Source: Limisphaerales bacterium (lineage in GTDB: Bacteria; Verrucomicrobiota; Verrucomicrobiia; Limisphaerales; UBA1100). Taken from it: a stretch of DNA of 64,000 bases. The DNA lies in contig JACNJL010000018.1 of NCBI GenBank assembly GCA_014382585.1, forward strand, positions 22,217 to 86,216, given 5' to 3'. Each line of letters starts with the position of its first letter. Positions within the stretch are counted from its first letter, which is position 1. Below, in pieces: positions 3,329 through 52,687 of the stretch. The notes beneath the pieces are model-generated. The model did no database searches and was not told the DNA's origin. It saw only the letters and a list, made by a program, of their open reading frames with translations. Both the position numbers and the translations under genes were made by a program.

Positions 3329-4003
3329 ATGTTGATTCACGTAAGCCGCGACGGAGAACAGTTTGGCCCTTATACGTTGGAGGACGCCAACGCGTATCTC
3401 GTTCAAGGCTCGCTGTTGCCTACGGATCAGGCGTGGTTTGAGGGCACGGCGGATTGGATTCCGATCACTGACGTGCCGGGGATTGAATGGAGGAGCACGC
3501 CGATGGTTGCATCGGCGGTAGCAGCAACGGGAGGCGAATCAAAGACCTTTTTGTACGCGGGCATCGCAGCGGGTGTGTTGGTGATTTTCGGCGTGGTGGG
3601 GTGGGGCTATCCGGGGGTGTTCAAGAAAAAAGAACCATCGACAGCTGCGGATGCTGACTCTGCTGATAAACCAAAGAATCCCTCCAAATCAATCTCAAGC
3701 GCATCCGACTCCACAAGTTTTGCAAAAACGGCCGAGCCGATTTTTCGCAAGTACGGTTGCTTCGATTGCCACAGCTCCAAGGAAAGCAATAAGGTGGAGG
3801 CAGATTTTGACTTGAGCGATCGCACTACGTGGAAAGCGTTTCTCTCGCCCAATCAAAAAGGCAATCCGGTCACCACGCCGCTCGTGCTTGCCATCACGGC
3901 CACCGACGCCAATGGTAAACCCATGCCCCCGCGCGGCAATCGCGTGAGCGATGCGGAGGTGGAGAGGATTAAAAAATGGATCGTCTCGGAATGGGGAATG
4001 TAG
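3329..4003 (+). CDS. Paralog of the preceding gene: GYF_2-like domain, TM helix, C-terminal CxxCH cytochrome c-like domain
   Basis: MLIHVSRDGEQFGPYTLEDANAYLVQGSLLPTDQAWFEGTADWIPITDVPGI is near-identical in pattern to the upstream gene. It has a TM helix (FLYAGIAAGVLVIFGVVGWGY) and a C-terminal CFDCHSS ... MPPRGN ... ERIKKWI. It lies 18 nt downstream of the previous stop. Confidence 0.6.
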   Translation: MLIHVSRDGEQFGPYTLEDANAYLVQGSLLPTDQAWFEGTADWIPITDVPGIEWRSTPMVASAVAATGGESKTFLYAGIAAGVLVIFGVVGWGYPGVFKKKEPSTAADADSADKPKNPSKSISSASDSTSFAKTAEPIFRKYGCFDCHSSKESNKVEADFDLSDRTTWKAFLSPNQKGNPVTTPLVLAITATDANGKPMPPRGNRVSDAEVERIKKWIVSEWGM

Positions 4004-4093
4004 CTCGAGCCGGTGGGCCGGGTGATTGATGGCTAAAAGATGATGGTTGATGGAAATCAATCGTCAATGTTCACTCGTCATTCGTAAATCAAG

Positions 4094-4618
4094 TCACTGC
4101 TTCGAAAGTTTTTCCAGCTGCGCTCGTAAGGGTTCCAAATCGGGATCCACTGAGGCGGCATTTTTCACGGCGTTGGAATCCACTTCAAGCGCGGAGGCGA
4201 GTTCCTCGGCAGCTTCGTGGATGCGGCCCATTTGCGCGAGGTAACAGGCCAGATTATACGGAATCACCCATTGATCAGGAAAACTATCGCGGACGTGGTA
4301 AAGCAAATCAAAGGCTTCCTCCGTGCGCTCGAGTTCGTGCAGCGCGAACGAGCGATGGATCCAGCCGCCGGGTCGGTCGGGAGCCTCTTGCACCAAGAGG
4401 TCGGCAGTCTTGACACAAGCGGGCCAGTTATGTTCCTGCGCGAAAAGTAGCCAGCTCACTTCGAGCACGTCCGGATGGCTCAACCGGTTCTCGGCGATGT
4501 GCTCCAACTCAGCCAGCGCTTCGGCGGGGTTGCCCAATTCCAGCCAGCCCTCCGCGGCGCGGAGGTGATGTCGTTCGGCTGGTTTGAGCGTTTTCATTGT
4601 TTGTAAAATCTGCGGCAA
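4094..4618 (-). CDS. Small TPR-repeat protein
   Basis: 174 aa made of helical repeats with TPR-like spacing (WLELGNPAEALAELEHI, IPYNLACYLAQMGRIHEAAEELASALEVD). Confidence 0.55.
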   Translation of the reverse strand: MPQILQTMKTLKPAERHHLRAAEGWLELGNPAEALAELEHIAENRLSHPDVLEVSWLLFAQEHNWPACVKTADLLVQEAPDRPGGWIHRSFALHELERTEEAFDLLYHVRDSFPDQWVIPYNLACYLAQMGRIHEAAEELASALEVDSNAVKNAASVDPDLEPLRAQLEKLSKQ

Positions 4619-4720: not shown

Positions 4721-6136
4721 ATGCAAAACGGCAATGAACTGACTTTTCGGGAGAATGTTGATCGAATGTTCGATCGAGCCGCCGCCACACTCGATTTGCC
4801 AATGGGATTGGCCGATCAAATCCGCACCTGCAACGGCGTGTATCAGATGAAATTTGGAGTTGAGTTGCGCGGAGGTTATCAAGTCATCACCGGCTGGCGC
4901 GCGGTACACAGCGAACATCAACTGCCGGTGAAAGGCGGCATCCGGTACGCGTATTTTGCAAATCAGGAAGAAGTGGAAGCGCTCGCGGCGTTGATGAGTT
5001 ACAAGTGCGCGATCGTCGACGTGCCCTTCGGCGGTTCCAAAGGCGCGCTCCGCATTCGCCCCAAAGATTATAGCGAGGAAGAACTCGAACACATTACCCG
5101 TCGCTTTACCGTGGAATTGGCCAAGCGCGGGCTGATCAATCCCGGCCTCAACGTGCCTGCGCCGGATATGGGCACGGGAGAGCGCGAGATGGCGTGGATG
5201 GCGGATGAGTATCGCCAACTTTTCCCCAACGACATCAACGGCTTCGGCTGTGTGACTGGCAAACCGGTTTCGATGGGCGGCATTCTCGGGCGCACGGAAG
5301 CTACCGGCCGCGGCGTGCAGTTTGGATTACGCGAATTTTTCCGGCATCCGGAGGATGTGAAATCCGCCGGGCTCACCGGCGATCTCGGCGGCAAAACGAT
5401 GGTCGTCCAAGGCCTCGGCAACGTGGGCTATCACGCCTCAAAATTTTTCAGTGAAGAAGATGGAGTGAAAATCACCGCCGTCATTGAGCGTGACGGTGCG
5501 GTGATTAATGACGACGGCCTCGACATCGAGGCCCTCTATCAACACAAGCTGGAAACCGGCGGTGTGAATGGATTCCCCGGTGCGGAACACATCGAAGATG
5601 GCGCGCCGGTTTTGGAAAAGGAGTGCGACATTCTGCTGCCCGCCGCGATGGAAGGCCAAATCACTCAAAAAAACGCCGGCCGCATCCAAGCCAAAATCAT
5701 CGCTGAAGCCGCCAATGGCCCCGTGACGTTTAATGCCGATCAAACCCTCCGCGAACGCGGCGTGGTCATTATTCCTGATGCATTTTTAAATGCCGGCGGT
5801 GTGACGGTATCTTATTTTGAATGGATCAAAAACCTCTCACACATTCGTTTCGGCCGAATGGAGCGGCGTTACGAGGAAGCCAAAGGCCGCGCGCTCGTCG
5901 AAGCCATCGAGGAAGCCGTTGGCAAAAAAGTCAGCGACAGCATCACCCAACGCCTCATCCAAGGCGCAGACGAACTCACCCTCGTCCGCTCCGGCCTCGA
6001 TGACACCATGCGCGAAGCGTATAATACGATTGCCGAGATTCATCGTTCTCGCGATGCTGTGGAAGATTTGCGCACGGCTGCTTTTGTGCGCGCCATCGAA
6101 AAAATTGCACACTGCTACAGCAGCATGGAATTATGA
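4721..6136 (+). CDS. gdh: Glu/Leu/Phe/Val dehydrogenase family enzyme, most likely glutamate dehydrogenase
   Basis: 471 aa. It has the catalytic-region motifs PVKGGIRY and VPFGGSKGAL, and the Rossmann motif VVQGLGNVGYH. Confidence 0.85.
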   Translation: MQNGNELTFRENVDRMFDRAAATLDLPMGLADQIRTCNGVYQMKFGVELRGGYQVITGWRAVHSEHQLPVKGGIRYAYFANQEEVEALAALMSYKCAIVDVPFGGSKGALRIRPKDYSEEELEHITRRFTVELAKRGLINPGLNVPAPDMGTGEREMAWMADEYRQLFPNDINGFGCVTGKPVSMGGILGRTEATGRGVQFGLREFFRHPEDVKSAGLTGDLGGKTMVVQGLGNVGYHASKFFSEEDGVKITAVIERDGAVINDDGLDIEALYQHKLETGGVNGFPGAEHIEDGAPVLEKECDILLPAAMEGQITQKNAGRIQAKIIAEAANGPVTFNADQTLRERGVVIIPDAFLNAGGVTVSYFEWIKNLSHIRFGRMERRYEEAKGRALVEAIEEAVGKKVSDSITQRLIQGADELTLVRSGLDDTMREAYNTIAEIHRSRDAVEDLRTAAFVRAIEKIAHCYSSMEL

Positions 6137-8604: not shown

Positions 8605-9638
8605 CGAAGCGAGACGATTCCATTCGACTGAATCGATCTCCCCGCAGCTTCGCATAATTCCACCGACCCCGCACCATCGACGGCGGTGACCACGCGGGGC
8701 GGTTTGCCATTGCGAATACATTCAGCAAAGTACGCGACTTGGCCGGCGTAGCCATCGGGCGCATCGAGCTTGAGCGTTTCGGGCTCTTTGCCTTGTTCAA
8801 AAATTTTCAGACAATCCTCCTCGCGTGTGTTGTCGAAATCTGCCGTCGCGCGTTCAAAGTTTACGGTGTATTCCATACTGAAGCCGAAGCCTTGGGTCAT
8901 CGCCCAGCTGCCTTCGGCGGAAACGGCGGCGCCGCAGTCCACTTCATATTGCGCTAGCACGTGATCGATCTCGCCGCTGACTTTGGTGTGGCCCTGGGCG
9001 TAAATGGATTTGGGTTTGCCAAAGCAAAAGCGCACAAAATCGGCATCGTGAATGTGCAAATCCAGCAACGCGCCGCCGGATTTTTTGCCATCGAGAAAGG
9101 TTGATTGTCCCCAAGCCGGGGCCGCGGCTACGCGGCGAAATCGCGCGCTTAAAACACGTCCGTAGCGTCGATCGTCAATGGCCTCTTTCACCCACGCCCA
9201 TTCCGGCCAAAAACGCAGGCACATAGCGGGCATAAAAAAACCTTTGGAGGCGGTGGCTGCCACGGTGATTTCGCGTGCTTCATCACTGGTGCGGGTCATT
9301 GGTTTTTCGCAGAGCACGTGCTTGCCCGAGGCCAGCGCGGCGAGGGCTTGTTCGTGATGGAGAAAAGTAGGCGTGGTAATGTCGATGAGATCGATGGAAT
9401 CATCGGCGAGCAATTCGTCGAGGCTGCGGTATGCGGCGATGTGGGTCATGTCCAGTTTTACCGGTTCATCGCTGCCCACGTTTCCGTGGACGTCAGAAAA
9501 ATCCCCATCAAGATGCCGGCCGCTCGGGTTGCACAAAGCCGCAATTTTGACGCCCTCCACTTGTTGGTACGCGCGAATATGCGTCACCGCCATAAATCCT
9601 GTGCCCACAACTCCAACTCGAATCTGATCCGACATCAT
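8601..9638 (-). CDS. Gfo/Idh/MocA family NAD(P)-dependent oxidoreductase
   Basis: N-terminal Rossmann motif IRVGVVGTGFMAVTHIRAY, plus the EKP motif (HVLCEKPM) typical of the family. Confidence 0.8.
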   Translation of the reverse strand: MMSDQIRVGVVGTGFMAVTHIRAYQQVEGVKIAALCNPSGRHLDGDFSDVHGNVGSDEPVKLDMTHIAAYRSLDELLADDSIDLIDITTPTFLHHEQALAALASGKHVLCEKPMTRTSDEAREITVAATASKGFFMPAMCLRFWPEWAWVKEAIDDRRYGRVLSARFRRVAAAPAWGQSTFLDGKKSGGALLDLHIHDADFVRFCFGKPKSIYAQGHTKVSGEIDHVLAQYEVDCGAAVSAEGSWAMTQGFGFSMEYTVNFERATADFDNTREEDCLKIFEQGKEPETLKLDAPDGYAGQVAYFAECIRNGKPPRVVTAVDGAGSVELCEAAGRSIQSNGIVSLR

Positions 9639-10485: not shown

Positions 10486-11160
10486 TTATTCCTTAGGCAA
10501 CAATGTTTTCAGAGGGCATGCATCGCAGTTCGGATCGCGCGGCTTGCAGTGGCGATTGCCGATGACGACCAATTGCGCGTGGTAATCGCGCCAATAATCC
10601 AGTTTTTCCGCGCCGCGTTTTTGGCTCAGGGAGTCGGCGCAGAGCGACTGCAAGTCATCGTAGCCAACCTCGGCGTCGCACCAACCGTGTCGTTCAAAAA
10701 TGCGTTTCGTGTAGGTATCAATCACGAAACTGCTGTGGTCGCCCGCGTAGAGCAACATACTGTCAGCCGTTTCGGGGCCCACGCCGTTGATGGCCAGCAG
10801 GCGTTCGCGGATAATGGCGGTGTTGCCGTTGAAAAGGTGTTTCAAACTAGCGCGATGTTGTTCGACGAGTACGTCCACAAAATTGCGGAGCCGTTTGGCT
10901 TTGATATTGAAATAACCCGCGGGCCGAATGAGCTGCGAAAGTTTGGCGTTTGAGAGGTTGTAGATTTTCTTGGGCGTCAGCACCCGTGCGGATTTGAGAT
11001 TGGCCAAGGCATGCTCCACATTTTTCCATGACGTATTTTGTGTGAGGATTGCGCCCACACAAATTTCGAACGGCGAATCCGCCGGCCACCATTTCAAATG
11101 CCCATGCGCCCGCCGCATCAGGCGATAGGCTTGGCGGAGCTCGGCTTGCATCCGCGGCAT
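10486..11160 (-). CDS. HhH-GPD superfamily endonuclease III-related DNA glycosylase-like protein
   Basis: ICVGAILTQNTSWKNV, the LLAINGVGPETADSMLLYA helix-hairpin-helix, and a C-terminal Cys cluster CKPRDPNCDACPL. The start is placed at the ATG at 11160. The track start at 11187 is a TTG. Confidence 0.65.
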   Translation of the reverse strand: MPRMQAELRQAYRLMRRAHGHLKWWPADSPFEICVGAILTQNTSWKNVEHALANLKSARVLTPKKIYNLSNAKLSQLIRPAGYFNIKAKRLRNFVDVLVEQHRASLKHLFNGNTAIIRERLLAINGVGPETADSMLLYAGDHSSFVIDTYTKRIFERHGWCDAEVGYDDLQSLCADSLSQKRGAEKLDYWRDYHAQLVVIGNRHCKPRDPNCDACPLKTLLPKE

Positions 11161-27768: not shown

Positions 27769-28500
27769 ATGGTCAAAATCATAATTCACGGTTCCAAAGG
27801 GCGAATGGGCCAAATGCTAATCGCGTGCGGGGAATCGATGGACGGCATCGAGATCGTCGCAGGCGTGGACGAAGGCGATGACTTATCCGCCCTCATCGCC
27901 GACTGCGATGCGGTGATCGATTTTAGTCTCCACAGCGCCAGCGCTGGATGCGCAATGCTCTGCGCCAAGCATGACAAAGCGTTTGTCATCGGCACCACCG
28001 GTCACTCTGATGCGGAGAAATCTGAAATCCTTAATCACCAATCAGAAATCCCGATTGTCTGGGCCAGTAATTATTCAACCGGGGTGAACACGCTTTTCTG
28101 GCTCACAAAAAAGGCCACTGAAATCCTCGGGCCGAATTTTGATTTGGAAGTGGTGGAGATGCATCACCGCCACAAAGTCGATGCCCCCAGTGGCACGGCC
28201 ACGACACTCGGCGAAATTCTGCTCGAAGTTCGTAATCAACAAAACGACGCACTGCGTCACGGTCGCGAAGGAATCGTGGGTGCGCGGACGAACGAGGAAA
28301 TTGGGATTCACAGCCTGCGCGGTGGCGACGTGGTGGGAGATCACACGGTTATTTATGCCGGTGCCGGTGAACGCCTCGAGCTCACTCATAAAGCGGCCAG
28401 CCGCGAAACCTTTGCCAACGGAGCCCTTCGCGCCGCACAATGGGCCGTCCAGCAATCGCCCGGCCTTTATGATATGCAGAATGTGTTAGGCTTGGAATGA
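27769..28500 (+). CDS. dapB: 4-hydroxy-tetrahydrodipicolinate reductase
   Basis: MVKIIIHGSKGRMGQ, plus EMHHRHKVDAPSGTA (the E-x-HH-x-x-K-x-DAPSGTA signature). The start was trimmed to the ATG at 27769. Confidence 0.9.
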   Translation: MVKIIIHGSKGRMGQMLIACGESMDGIEIVAGVDEGDDLSALIADCDAVIDFSLHSASAGCAMLCAKHDKAFVIGTTGHSDAEKSEILNHQSEIPIVWASNYSTGVNTLFWLTKKATEILGPNFDLEVVEMHHRHKVDAPSGTATTLGEILLEVRNQQNDALRHGREGIVGARTNEEIGIHSLRGGDVVGDHTVIYAGAGERLELTHKAASRETFANGALRAAQWAVQQSPGLYDMQNVLGLE

Positions 28501-40206: not shown

Positions 40207-40554
40207 TTAGCTTGCGCTCTCAATTCTCTTAACCGTGAGCGGCCCATCAAAAATCGTGAGGCTCACCACTTCTGTGCGCGCCACGTGAGGGCCGTGGACT
40301 TCGCCTTTGGGAGCGTGAAATAATGTACCCGCCGTGTACACTGTGCCGCTCTCTTCCCATTCGCCGCTGAGCACGTAGGCTGTTTCGTTGGCGGCGGGAT
40401 GGATGTGGGCAGGGACGGTGGTGCCGGCGTGGAATTTCCGTAGCACCGTGACGCCGGCGGTGGCTTCATCCTTGCGCAGGATTTTCAGTTCCACGCCTTC
40501 GTACGGGCCGGTTTGCCAGTCGGTTTGCGATTCGTTGAGGGTGAATGGAAACAT
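40207..40554 (-). CDS. Cupin-domain protein (ChrR-like cupin)
   Basis: 115 aa. VLRKFHAGTTVPAHIHPAANETAYVLSGEWEE ... GTLFHAPKGEVHGP is a cupin metal-site-like pattern. Confidence 0.6.
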   Translation of the reverse strand: MFPFTLNESQTDWQTGPYEGVELKILRKDEATAGVTVLRKFHAGTTVPAHIHPAANETAYVLSGEWEESGTVYTAGTLFHAPKGEVHGPHVARTEVVSLTIFDGPLTVKRIESAS

Positions 40555-40556
40555 TG

Positions 40557-40635
40557 TGGATTTACGATTTCAGATTGACGTTTGACGAATGGCTCTGCCT
40601 CAATCGTAGGTCGTCAATCTGAAATCGTAAATCCA
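40557..40635. repeat. Perfect 24-bp inverted repeat filling the cupin-miaE divergent intergenic region
   Basis: The left arm tggatttacgatttcagattgacg (40557-40580) is the exact reverse complement of the right arm cgtcaatctgaaatcgtaaatcca (40612-40635), with a 31-nt spacer. I verified this base by base. Confidence 0.95.
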
Positions 40636-40639
40636 ATAA

Positions 40640-41212
40640 ATGCATCTCTGGCGCGAACCCATCCCCGAAACTTGGCTGCCCAAAGTGCTGGGCAATCTGG
40701 ACGCGGTGTTGCTCGATCACTGCCACCTTGAGCGCAAAGCGGCGGCCAGCGCGTTGAGCTTGATGAAATATCCCGAGCTGGCCGGACGCGCTCGCGAGCT
40801 CAACGCCATCGCGCAGGAAGAATTGGAGCATTTCAATTTGCTGCTCGATTTGCTCGAGCAACGCGGCGTGCCCTTTGGAGTGCCGCATTCGAGCCCGTGG
40901 ATTAGCGGCCTGATGCGCTTCATCCGCAAAGGTCGGCGCGAGCAAGTCATTGATCATCTCATCGCCGCTTCATTGGTCGAAGGGCGGAGTTGCGAGAAAT
41001 TCCAGATCCTTGCCCAAACCCTGCGCGACACGGAGCCCGCGCTTGCTGATTTTTATGCGAATCTTGTGGCCAGCGAAGGCAACCATTATGCGGAATTCTG
41101 GCTCATGGCCTGCAAAATCAACAATGCGGAGGCGCATGAACGCCTGGATGCATTTTTAGATTTGGATGCGGAATTGATCACGCAGTCACACGAATTGCCG
41201 TTGCTCCATTAA
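40640..41212 (+). CDS. miaE: tRNA-(ms2io6A37)-hydroxylase, diiron MiaE family
   Basis: LLDHCHLERKAA, QEELEHF, LVEGRSCEKF and ASEGNHY match the ferritin-like diiron ligand pattern of MiaE. Confidence 0.8.
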   Translation: MHLWREPIPETWLPKVLGNLDAVLLDHCHLERKAAASALSLMKYPELAGRARELNAIAQEELEHFNLLLDLLEQRGVPFGVPHSSPWISGLMRFIRKGRREQVIDHLIAASLVEGRSCEKFQILAQTLRDTEPALADFYANLVASEGNHYAEFWLMACKINNAEAHERLDAFLDLDAELITQSHELPLLH

Positions 41213-41221
41213 AGAAATTAA

Positions 41222-41306
41222 TGGTGCGCGAGAGAGGACTCGAACCTCCACCCCCGAAAGGACTACCACCTCAAGGTAGCGCGTCTACCAATTCCGCCAC
41301 TCGCGC
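41222..41306 (-). tRNA. tRNA-Leu: tRNA-Leu, anticodon GAG
   Basis: The reverse complement is GCGCGAGTGGCGGAATTGGTAGACGCGCTACCTTGAGGTGGTAGTCCTTTCGGGGGTGGAGGTTCGAGTCCTCTCTCGCGCACCA. This is a class II tRNA with a long variable arm. The anticodon loop TTGAGGT gives GAG, and CCA is encoded. Confidence 0.9.
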
Positions 41307-51382: not shown

Positions 51383-51545
51383 TGGGAATTCCCAATGACC
51401 AAAACCCAAAACCAAAGGAATGATCAATCACCAAGCCCCAGATTGGTTTTTGTGATTTGAGACTTCCTTGGGATTTGGTCATTGGGCCTTGGTGATTAAT
51501 CAATGATCATTGAAAATCCTATCTCTTGTGGGATTTGAGGTTCCT
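51383..51545. promoter_or_regulatory. Repeat-dense core of the A2M / MoxR divergent control region
   Basis: Palindromes tgggaattccca (51383-51394) and caatgatcattg (51501-51512). A 12-bp inverted repeat ccaatgaccaaa (51392-51403) / tttggtcattgg (51474-51485). A 17/19 inverted repeat tgatcaatcaccaagcccc (51421-51439) / gggccttggtgattaatca (51484-51502). Direct repeats of gatttgag..ttcct (51454-51468 and 51533-51545). Confidence 0.5.
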
Positions 51546-51616: not shown

Positions 51617-52687
51617 ATGCACAAACAAACCCTTCTTGACGCGGATGTCCCGAATTCTGGCGGTGGCATGAATCAGGTTTCTGACGAGGACAAAAAAGCG
51701 GTCGATCAACTGCGTGAGCAGTATGGCGGCATGCGGGCTGAGATGGCGAAGATCATTATTGGTCAGGATAAAGTGGTGGAGCAAATGCTCATCTGTATCC
51801 TCTCGCGCGGGCACAGCTTGTTGATGGGCGTGCCGGGCTTGGCGAAGACGTTGATGGTCAACTCGCTGTCCAAAATCATGAGCCTGCAGTTTAGCCGGAT
51901 TCAGTTCACGCCGGATTTAATGCCGAGTGATATTACGGGCACAGAGATTTTGCAGGAAGGCGAAGCGGGGCGTCGCGAGTTTGAATTCGTGAAGGGCCCG
52001 ATCTTTGCGAACATCGTGTTGGCGGATGAAATTAACCGGACGCCGCCGAAGACGCAGAGCGCGCTTTTGGAGGCGATGCAGGAGCATCGTGTGACCACCG
52101 GCGGCGAGCACCGTGCTTTGCCGCAGCCGTTCTTCGTGTTGGCCACGCAAAACCCAATCGAACAGGAGGGCACGTATCCATTGCCCGAGGCGCAGTTGGA
52201 CCGCTTTATGTTTCTCATCCAAGTGGATTATCCGAGCGTGGAAGAGGAGCGCCGCATTGCCCGCGAAACCACCGGCACACACACGGCAGATTTGACCGAG
52301 GTGATCGATGGCCCCACGCTGCAAACTTACCAAAGTCTTGTGGAGCGTGTGCCGGTACCGGATCACGTTTATGATGATGTGGTGGATATGGTGCGCCTGA
52401 CGCGGCCGAAGGCGGAAGACGCGCCCGAGTGGATTCAGAAATGGGTCACCTGGGGTTCCGGCCCGCGCGCGGTGCAGTATCTCGTCCGCGGTGCCAAAGC
52501 GCACGCGGTGTTGCAGGGACGTTATGTGGTCGGTTGGGAAGACGTGGAAGCGGTGGCGCACTCGGTGCTTTCCCATCGGATCCTCACCAACTTCCAGGCG
52601 CAAAGCGAAGGCGTGGACAGCGCGTTTGTCATCGATAAACTGCTCGAGAACATTGCCGACAAGGAAGCGGCAATGGCCACCCAGTAA
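51617..52687 (+). CDS. MoxR-family AAA+ ATPase
   Basis: IIGQDKVVEQMLICILSRGHSLLMGVPGLAKT (Walker A), ANIVLADEINRTPPKTQSALLEAMQE (Walker B / sensor) and FFVLATQNPIEQEGTYPLPEAQLDRF. An alternative start is the ATG at 51668. Confidence 0.9.
   Translation: MHKQTLLDADVPNSGGGMNQVSDEDKKAVDQLREQYGGMRAEMAKIIIGQDKVVEQMLICILSRGHSLLMGVPGLAKTLMVNSLSKIMSLQFSRIQFTPDLMPSDITGTEILQEGEAGRREFEFVKGPIFANIVLADEINRTPPKTQSALLEAMQEHRVTTGGEHRALPQPFFVLATQNPIEQEGTYPLPEAQLDRFMFLIQVDYPSVEEERRIARETTGTHTADLTEVIDGPTLQTYQSLVERVPVPDHVYDDVVDMVRLTRPKAEDAPEWIQKWVTWGSGPRAVQYLVRGAKAHAVLQGRYVVGWEDVEAVAHSVLSHRILTNFQAQSEGVDSAFVIDKLLENIADKEAAMATQ

Follow-up and report, generated by a model that had tools for sequence, protein, structure and literature searches.

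What is the function of a perfect palindrome that lies between two divergent genes and reaches almost to both start codons? The question is raised by a locus in a metagenome-assembled genome (MAG) of a Verrucomicrobiia bacterium (Limisphaerales, contig JACNJL010000018.1), of which a 64-kb stretch was analysed; this whole stretch is referred to here as the window. A cupin gene on the minus strand (start codon CAT at 40552-40554) and miaE on the plus strand (ATG at 40640) are separated by 85 nt, the only non-coding DNA upstream of either gene. The left arm of the inverted repeat in this gap, TGGATTTACGATTTCAGATTGACG (40557-40580), is the exact reverse complement of the right arm, CGTCAATCTGAAATCGTAAATCCA (40612-40635), over 24 of 24 positions. 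The arms end 2 nt from the start codon on the cupin side and 4 nt on the miaE side, and 31 nt (40581-40611) lie between them. An earlier note on this DNA had described the arrangement correctly: its coordinates were confirmed, and Pfam matches to Cupin_7 (E = 2.5e-17) and MiaE (E = 1.5e-41) showed that the gene calls are right. Its regulatory interpretation fared less well. The arms proved to be copies of a module of 7-nt units that recurs in several phyla, and comparison with related species shows the pair to have replaced an unrelated promoter spacer, after which the arms came under strong constraint. The features of the locus are as follows.

40207..40554, minus strand: gene of a Cupin_7 (ChrR-type cupin) protein, 115 aa (Pfam)
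40640..41212, plus strand: miaE (tRNA ms2io6A hydroxylase family), 190 aa (Pfam)
40557..40580, minus strand: left arm, the terminal module of an AATC-core heptad array, reading CGTCAAT-CTGAAAT-CGTAAAT-CCA towards cupin
40612..40635, plus strand: right arm, the identical module towards miaE, with 0 changes relative to the other species L008
40557..40591, minus strand: full left heptad array, about 5 units, inner units degenerate (CCATTCG TCAAACG)
40601..40635, plus strand: full right heptad array, about 5 units (TCAATCG TAGGTCG TCAATCT GAAATCG TAAATCC)
40592..40600, strandless: central 9-nt loop between both arrays

The repeat is the longest inverted repeat within the window. No 24-mer match arose in window shuffles, and chance is excluded by a wide margin. 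Ungapped extension lengthens the arms to 35 nt with 86% complementarity around a 9-nt loop; the DNA fold of the repeat reaches -29.7 kcal/mol (z = -11.1). Two TTGACG hexamers had been placed in the spacer between the perfect arms. The length given for this spacer holds, but only one of the two copies lies in it (40582-40587), the other being the inner end of the left arm (40575-40580, plus strand); a third copy is found on the minus strand inside the right arm (40612-40617).

Six more assemblies of the same organism (L001-L004, L006 and L007) are identical at the repeat, and L008, which belongs to another species, carries the same repeat with one change. Consequently, the repeat cannot be an artefact of assembly. 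The identity of the same-species contigs extends over kilobases, and nothing can therefore be learned from them about repeat-number polymorphism. In one further contig (L005, from ENA, 2.7x coverage), the first 33 nt, corresponding to window positions 40537-40569, are unrelated and replace the cupin start and the outer left arm, with the junction at 40570. This flank is probably a chimeric contig end caused by the repeat.

A dispersed family of heptad arrays

Read towards its gene, each arm is composed of 7-nt units with a constant AATC core, AATCGTC-AATCTGA-AATCGTA-AATC, and the longer read of the array is AATCGTA-AATCGTC-AATCTGA-AATCGTA-AATC. The family unit can be written as AATCGTM and the terminal module as ...CGTCAAT-CTGAAAT-CGTAAAT-C, with the unit variants CGTAAAT, CGTCAAT and CTGAAAT. 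The 85-nt spacer consists of about five units running leftward, 9 nt, and about five units running rightward; its autocorrelation (0.50 at lag 7, 0.54 at lag 14) is that of tandem 7-nt units.

Metagenome contigs from JGI were scanned for the exact 22-mer GATTTACGATTTCAGAWTGACG, which was found in 62 contigs representing 44 independent genomic sites, with contig G+C contents from 0.38 to 0.65. Only one of these sites (L115/L121) is a cupin-miaE orthologue. The neighbours are otherwise unrelated and include pstB, an ECF sigma factor gene, parA, nuoJ, mreC and tRNA genes. According to the MAG labels of neighbouring proteins, an assignment with some risk of mis-binning, the sites belong to Anaerolineales (L088, L095, L124, L134, L136, L138 and L142), Verrucomicrobiota (L128 and the window), Terriglobales (L132) and Mucilaginibacter. 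The last comprises L101/L130, whose MreB is identical to a RefSeq Mucilaginibacter protein, and the L089 group, assigned through an S41 peptidase cluster. The module is thereby shown to be a dispersed family present at many unrelated loci in at least four bacterial phyla. The earlier note had proposed a genome-wide search for the 24-mer and had itself named a generic dispersed repeat as the outcome that would speak against its interpretation; a generic dispersed repeat is what was found. Co-regulation of the cupin and MiaE in response to oxygen, also suggested there, is ruled out by the occurrence of the 22-nt core at 44 unrelated sites.

In the other contigs, the arrays contain 3 to 16 units, and several contigs carry several arrays. 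They are located before start codons, 5-7 nt before tRNA 5' ends, immediately behind the 3' ends of tRNAs or genes, across the whole gap between co-transcribed genes, and in frame within open reading frames (ORFs); some copies fill tRNA-tRNA spacers end to end. Before downstream starts, the A-rich strand is the sense strand in 21 cases versus 6. Viral contigs, phages and plasmids yielded no module match, although the low-complexity filter of BLAST may conceal some. A literature search on the sequence itself returned nothing relevant.

Within the window, the family is present only as the cupin-miaE pair and a decayed array at 4047-4092 (AATCGTC AATGTTC ACTCGTC ATTCGTA AATCAAG; Tandem Repeats Finder period 7, 4.9 copies, 70% matches), which lies between two convergent ORFs and abuts the stop of the minus-strand ORF at 4094. 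The family has therefore occupied more than one site in the source genome. A near-match at 28019-28050 (AATCTGA AATCCTT AATCACC AATCAGA AATC) lies inside a coding region and was judged to be a chance or coding feature.

Some individual sites merit separate description. In-frame arrays occur in an orthologous membrane-protein gene in L096 (719-757) and L148 (1469-1507 and 1859-1883), where they encode peptides of the type ...SEIVNRKSEI...; the two orthologues differ at the same position by 21 nt, i.e., three units or seven residues. The tRNA-Ser(tga)/tRNA-Ser(gct) spacer contains the same palindromic heptad element in opposite orientations in L113 (5840-5906) and L135 (2500-2566; also L097), such that the arm facing the downstream tRNA in one organism faces the upstream tRNA in the other. 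Either the whole element flipped or it was acquired twice. L144 (1677-4198) comprises 21 tRNA genes in 2.5 kb, and an inverted heptad pair (2108-2190) fills the sole larger gap, between tRNA-Val and tRNA-Leu. Finally, L094 (G+C 0.65) contains inverted G-rich heptad pairs (CAGGGAT / CAGGGGT ... CCCTGAT), for example at 5223-5303, 9394-9472, 10509-10577 and 10801-10882. These resemble the GGGAATC repeats of Xanthomonas, and AATCGTM arrays are found on the same contig, one of which (5460-5491) appears inside a very long ORF resembling a nonribosomal peptide synthetase.

Inverted pairs of AATC-core arrays have a strict polarity. The window and the fetched loci together gave 21 pairs, from about 16 independent sites and mostly of the AATCGTM family; all 21 point outward and none inward, the GATT-strand arm coming first and the AATC-strand arm second. 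The window pair has the longest perfect run, 24 nt versus 6-20 nt in the other pairs. To assess the hairpin, real pairs were compared with chimeric pairs assembled from arms of different loci; the mean energies were -0.354 and -0.387 kcal/mol per nt, respectively (Mann-Whitney P = 0.75). Real pairs are not more stable than chimeras, and complementarity therefore arises from family membership and not from hairpin selection, which was rejected on this basis. It follows that the perfect match in the window is due to both arms being consensus copies of the family and that the hairpin is a by-product. The proposal that a hairpin occludes initiation in read-through transcripts is not borne out, as the hairpin is not what is conserved. 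Rfam searches of the whole window at the gathering threshold, and of 40400-40800 by E-value, returned only two tRNAs and sub-threshold miRNA-hairpin models, and a consensus terminator scan gave no terminator-like site in the spacer.

With terminal inverted repeats matching at 24/24 positions and a length of 79 nt, the element has traits of a miniature inverted-repeat transposable element (MITE). However, the flanks in the window are TG and AT, and no consistent target-site duplication was seen in 16 other pairs. A classic MITE is ruled out by the lack of a target duplication together with the lack of an empty site.

Heptad pairs are not limited to this family. A family-agnostic scan of all sequence analysed identified 45 heptad-periodic inverted repeats belonging to many families. 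Outward polarity was also considered as a means of avoiding start codons upstream of genes; this explanation is not general, as the AACACC and CCAA types have the opposite strand composition. The window itself contains a second inverted heptad pair of a different family at 51391-51502, in a region of about 300 nt upstream of a gene starting at 51618. Its units are CCAATGA CCAAAAC CCAAAAC ... TTGGGAT TTGGTCA TTGGGCC TTGGTGA, forming two overlapping inverted repeats, one of 19 nt (95%) and one of 20 nt (90%); the leading arm is A/C-rich, the reverse of the strand composition of AATCGTM pairs. TTGGTCA is a classic unit of the cyanobacterial short tandemly repeated repetitive (STRR) sequences.

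In ten Mucilaginibacter-like loci (L154-L163) with identical MreB, the mreB-mreC spacer (79-92 nt) is always an inverted heptad pair and is mostly filled by it. The family varies by lineage: some carry AATCGTM units, others (GAGATGT)n/(ATCTCAY)n and others (GTGAGTR)n/(YACTCAC)n. An inserted 23S_rRNA_IVP gene separates mreB from mreC in three loci, where a (GAGATTA)n family comes after the mreB stop. The same pattern is seen in the purH-mreB spacer, with inverted heptad pairs of lineage-specific families. The spacers of these ten loci lie at ~3524-3620 and ~2240-2500, with the unit families AATCGTA, GAGATGT, GTGAGTG, GAGATTA, AATCAAC and CACGAAT. The swap of heptad families at mreB-mreC is comparable to the change at cupin-miaE, with no sign of regulatory takeover. 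The inverted heptad pair is a general, fast-changing intergenic architecture. Promoter activity can at most be the reason why the cupin-miaE copy was retained.

Replacement of the older spacer and constraint on the arms

The history of the locus was traced in a series of relatives comprising MiaE homologues from 80 GTDB species and four relatives fetched by protein, a sample unbiased by the repeat. The divergent cupin-miaE arrangement is present in at least 11 Verrucomicrobial loci (L008-L013, L017, L023, L025, L032 and L033). Conservation of the arms at such orthologous loci, raised as a check in the earlier note, is found only in part: the heptad pair of the window is kept in L008 and decayed in L012, whereas eight equally close relatives (L009-L011, L013 and L150-L153) have a different, unrelated spacer, with a length of 103 nt in L009 and of 85 nt in the other seven. 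Six of the 85-nt older spacers share 79-96% identity with one another and 15-26% with the window spacer, which is the chance level.

On both sides, the older spacer reads TTGACW-N17-TACTTT/TACATT/TACCTT/TAATTT-N6/7-start codon, with the hexamers conserved and the intervening stretch variable. It is also mirror-symmetric: the arms of L010 are 32 nt long and match at 78%, whereas those of L009 are 43 nt long and match at 93%. In the latter (1823-1926), an inverted copy of the miaE-side promoter overwrote the cupin-side half and lengthened the spacer to 103 nt. This is a second, independent case at the locus of two genes gaining near-identical promoters. Among 78 Verrucomicrobial miaE loci, TANNNT has its first T at -13 to -11 in 12 loci, versus about 0.3 per position elsewhere, and in many more of them a hexamer such as TAAATG precedes the ATG by 5-7 nt. 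Zheng et al. (PMC3160421) recognise leaderless genes by a TANNNT-type signal located approximately 12 nt ahead of the start codon. The boxes of the older spacer and the accumulation of TANNNT therefore indicate that the ancestral state was a pair of back-to-back promoters for leaderless mRNAs.

In a neighbour-joining tree of the two genes, the older type is basal, and the window groups with L008 in a derived pair supported at 99.5%. No empty orthologous site was found among the relatives; there was instead a replacement of equal length (85 nt). These comparisons show that the heptad pair replaced an unrelated mirror-symmetric promoter spacer in the window lineage.

The comparison of the window with L008 makes it possible to follow the arms after this event. 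L008 was found through protein similarity, and the comparison is therefore unbiased by the repeat. At a synonymous divergence (dS) of 0.41-0.55, the arms differ at 1 of 48 positions versus 33% at four-fold sites (P = 9e-8). The whole spacer has 6 changes in 85 positions (P = 9e-9), and the stretch between the perfect arms (40581-40611) has 3 in 31. In the lineages carrying the heptad pair, the ratio of non-synonymous to synonymous divergence (dN/dS) is 0.08-0.11 for the cupin gene and 0.08-0.10 for miaE; both genes are therefore functional and must be expressed. Judged by these substitution patterns, the arms are shown to have been under strong constraint since the replacement and both genes to be under purifying selection. 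Because the promoter pair was replaced, the arms are constrained and the genes are under selection, the heptad pair would have to supply the expression signals of both genes.

On the other side of miaE, a tRNA-Leu(gag) gene (41222-41306, minus strand) begins 10 nt past the stop (41212) and is convergent with miaE, a tRNA-modification gene.

Candidate roles of the arms

The leading, though still tentative, interpretation makes each arm an extended -10-like promoter (TG-A-AATCGT) that faces outward and starts transcription 3-5 nt ahead of the ATG. In each arm, the last two units would then be read as C-TG-A-AATCGT-AAATC, with TG at -15/-14, A at -11 and T at -7. The extended -10 consensus is TGnTATAAT. 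Transcription would begin about 7 nt after the T at -7, that is, 3 nt before the ATG of cupin and 5 nt before that of miaE. The miaE transcript would start at ~40635 with the leader AAUAA, and the cupin transcript at ~40557 with the leader ACA. The two genes would most likely be co-expressed in this manner from two identical, probably constitutive, near-leaderless promoters. The arms would be promoter DNA absent from the mRNAs, and their hairpin potential a by-product. The corresponding features are listed below.

40620..40628, plus strand: candidate extended -10-like element of miaE, from geometry (TG 40620-40621, A, AATCGT 40623-40628)
40628-40633, plus strand: alternative hexamer TAAATC of miaE, 12 nt before the ATG
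~40635 (range 40634-40640), plus strand: predicted miaE transcription start, from geometry
40564..40572, minus strand: candidate extended -10-like element of cupin, the mirror image, from arm symmetry
~40557, minus strand: predicted cupin transcription start, with the leader ACA before AUG

TG-A-AATCGT occurs in both arms 3-5 nt before the ATGs, and this geometry, from which the promoter role is read on sequence grounds, recurs elsewhere. TAAATC takes the place that TAAATG has in Chthoniobacterales orthologues. At 5 of the 44 sites (11% versus 3.4% in controls), the module ends 1-3 nt before the ATG of a genuine gene lacking a Shine-Dalgarno sequence; the genes encode PstB, an ECF sigma factor, a membrane protein, a transglutaminase-like protein and MoeA. 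Some gaps of 13-17 nt include a Shine-Dalgarno-like sequence (e.g., L124 and L136), as does the short leader that follows the module in L111. Gaps of 5-7 nt separate the module from the 5' ends of tRNA genes. The idea of a symmetric bidirectional promoter or operator survives, in modified form, for the promoter, in view of the mirrored -35/-10 boxes of the relatives and the constraint on the arms; the distribution of the sequence removes the operator. It is unlikely that both mRNAs carry identical 24-nt 5' leaders, as had been proposed, since the -10 box of the orthologues lies 5-7 nt before the start codon and the best promoter reading places the transcription starts at the outer arm edges.

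Several observations weigh against outward promoters. AATCGT agrees with TATAAT at only 3/6 positions, and a consensus scan of the spacer did not find a -35/-10 pair 16-18 nt apart, the best TTGACG-hexamer spacings being 19 nt. Half of the 44 sites have no gene start ahead of them within 60 nt. Some copies are directed at the 3' ends of tRNAs or genes, and others sit in frame inside ORFs or lie between co-transcribed genes (mreB-mreC in Mucilaginibacter, rpmG-tRNA). Given these sites away from gene starts, promoter activity cannot be the general reason for the family. The promoter consensus of Bacteroidota differs, yet the module is present there too. In addition, the T-rich strand of each arm has an inward TACGAT (TANNNT), which could start transcripts with a far-arm leader.

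Other signals were also considered. A promoter spanning both arms, its -35 box provided by the far arm and its -10 box by the near one, was dropped because the spacings are 19 nt or worse. The sole promoter-like site of the scan, at 40295-40324 inside the cupin gene, is at chance level. Complementarity to 16S rRNA and the consensus sequences of IHF, DnaA, H-NS, CtsR and ECF sigma factors were compared with the module, and none fits.

Among the alternatives to outward promoters, the most durable, though unlikely, is a selfish or neutral repeat of the STRR, repetitive extragenic palindrome (REP) or MITE type, grown by slippage or inserted as a small element. It would merely occupy the spacer, and the genes would be transcribed from elsewhere, e.g., from inside a neighbouring gene. 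The many contexts of the family are consistent with such a repeat. They include the in-frame copies that differ by 21 nt between the L096 and L148 orthologues, the tRNA-tRNA spacers filled end to end, the element flipped between the orthologous tRNA-Ser spacers of L113 and L135, the mreB-mreC heptad family that differs per lineage in Mucilaginibacter relatives with identical MreB, and the decayed copy at 4047-4092. At the cupin-miaE locus, however, neutral DNA would have diverged, whereas the arms have changed far less than four-fold sites (1/48 versus 33%), and conversion between the arms cannot keep two species at the same sequence. The ancestral promoters are gone, yet both genes are under purifying selection. 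Insertion is further opposed by the equal-length replacement, with no visible target-site duplication and no empty site, and by phage and plasmid collections that gave no match under the BLAST low-complexity filter.

It is distinctly unlikely that the heptads are sites for an abundant DNA-binding protein, such as a nucleoid-associated protein or global regulator, which would recognise GATT/AATC every 7 bp and make the spacer a shared regulatory or architectural site. This would account for a constant AATC core with three variable positions (AATCGTA, AATCGGG, AATCCGA and AATCACG in this analysis), a core that also occurs in GGGAATC of Xanthomonas and GGGGAYT of Nostoc (PMC4692102). The strong sequence constraint and the presence of the same sequence in several phyla are in line with it as well, and three units (21 bp) correspond to two helical turns. 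Yet the 7-bp period is out of phase with the DNA helix, the AATC core is missing from other heptad families (GAGATGT, GTGAGTG, AACACC), a regulatory function does not readily account for the copies in tRNA spacers and within ORFs, and no candidate protein is known.

A role at the RNA level, the other option of the earlier note, appears improbable. In this case, transcription would start in the far arm or spacer, and the near arm (AAUCGUC AAUCUGA AAUCGUA AAUC) would form an A-rich leader without a Shine-Dalgarno sequence, which both genes would share as an element of translation initiation or control; a transcript running through both arms would fold into a hairpin. Such a hairpin would be very stable (-46 kcal/mol, z = -8), and the inward TACGAT in each arm offers a TANNNT hexamer, but one without a -35 box and without TG. 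The prevalence of the A-rich strand as sense strand (21 versus 6) and the abutment of the module on starts lacking a Shine-Dalgarno sequence, also between co-transcribed genes (L090, L096, L128, L148 and mreB-mreC), would suit a leader. However, the module is also found 5-7 nt before tRNA genes, which are untranslated, and the orthologous miaE and cupin genes are set up as leaderless. Pair complementarity is not under selection, and the Rfam hits are only sub-threshold generic hairpin models.

A palindromic operator for a dedicated dimeric transcription factor mediating oxygen co-regulation of the cupin and MiaE is highly improbable and was rejected on the distribution of the sequence: the symmetry between divergent genes and the retention of the gene pair in at least 11 Verrucomicrobial loci speak for it, but in four phyla the same sequence adjoins genes unrelated to these, known operators do not resemble half-sites of 24 nt separated by 31 nt, and the sequence is entirely absent from close relatives that have the gene pair. 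Nothing at the locus points to an oxygen-sensing operator or a shared RNA switch. When a perfect palindrome is found between divergent genes, its arm should be searched for elsewhere before the palindrome is called an operator.

Beyond this locus, the AATCGTM module, and perhaps AATC-core arrays generally, might constitute a portable cis-element across phyla that is able to overwrite a native regulatory region, although this generalisation is doubtful. It may be an unrecognised kind of very small repeat, mobile or templated, whose arrival does not duplicate the target. Another possibility is repeated selection of the sequence because it is read by a universal machine, such as RNA polymerase via an extended -10 element or a conserved GATT-binding protein. 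In both cases the module would be able to overwrite a regulatory region end to end and take over expression, as at cupin-miaE. In any event, the replacement turns the function of heptad arrays into a simple testable question, and some of the sites are apparently in Mucilaginibacter, a genus with cultured species, which may ease testing.

Relation to known repeat systems

Heptameric arrays have reportedly been known for decades, the cyanobacterial STRR heptanucleotides attributed to Mazel (1990) being the classic case. Heptamers are over-represented among the simple sequence repeats of many bacterial genomes, with almost no literature on them (PMC4692102), and the function of the arrays in Xanthomonas (GGGAATC) and Nostoc (GGGGAYT) is unknown (Rehm et al. 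2015, PMC4692102). The window family resembles these arrays in its tandem 7-nt units with a conserved core and variable positions, in its dispersed, mostly intergenic location near ORF ends, in its range from few to many units, in its frequent inverted stem-loop pairs, and in its variation among relatives; with the Xanthomonas unit it also has the AATC core in common. In contrast, the window unit is AT-rich and has no G-tract, and hence forms no quadruplex. Its units are ordered and end in a fixed terminal module, the same 22- to 32-mer is found in at least four phyla, and its pairs are strictly outward. The divergent-start context is under-represented in Xanthomonas (7-8%), whereas the window copy occupies it under strong purifying selection. 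What is new is an AT-rich module of ordered units that recurs across phyla, inverted pairs that are strictly outward, and the replacement of a promoter pair followed by purifying selection.

REP and BIME elements and REPINs of proteobacteria are likewise dispersed intergenic palindromes that often form inverted pairs. They also lie between co-transcribed genes and after stops, as the heptad arrays do at mreB-mreC, purH-mreB and rpmG-tRNA. REPs are genome-specific and GC-rich, are not built of heptads and are tied to RAYT transposases; the window module, in contrast, is AT-rich and present across phyla.

Back-to-back sigma70-type leaderless promoters are matched exactly by the older spacer of the relatives (TTGACW-N17-TAnnnT-N6/7-start, on both sides). 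The window arms differ, as they lack a -35 box and their hexamer, though preceded by TG, is weak, and their promoter role is a putative one.

Correia elements (CREE/NEMIS) are approximately 100-150 bp long and are known only from Neisseria. Their 26-bp terminal repeats are non-periodic, a TA target is duplicated on insertion, and IHF binds to them. In common with the window pair, they are small elements bounded by inverted repeats. They differ from it in that the window arms are heptad arrays with no target duplication seen, single arms are common, and the family spans phyla. Correia elements can give rise to a promoter at either or both ends and thereby control the adjacent genes, and they become hairpin substrates when transcribed (PMC2649163). 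By analogy, the Correia element would be the best functional counterpart for an arm acting as an outward promoter.

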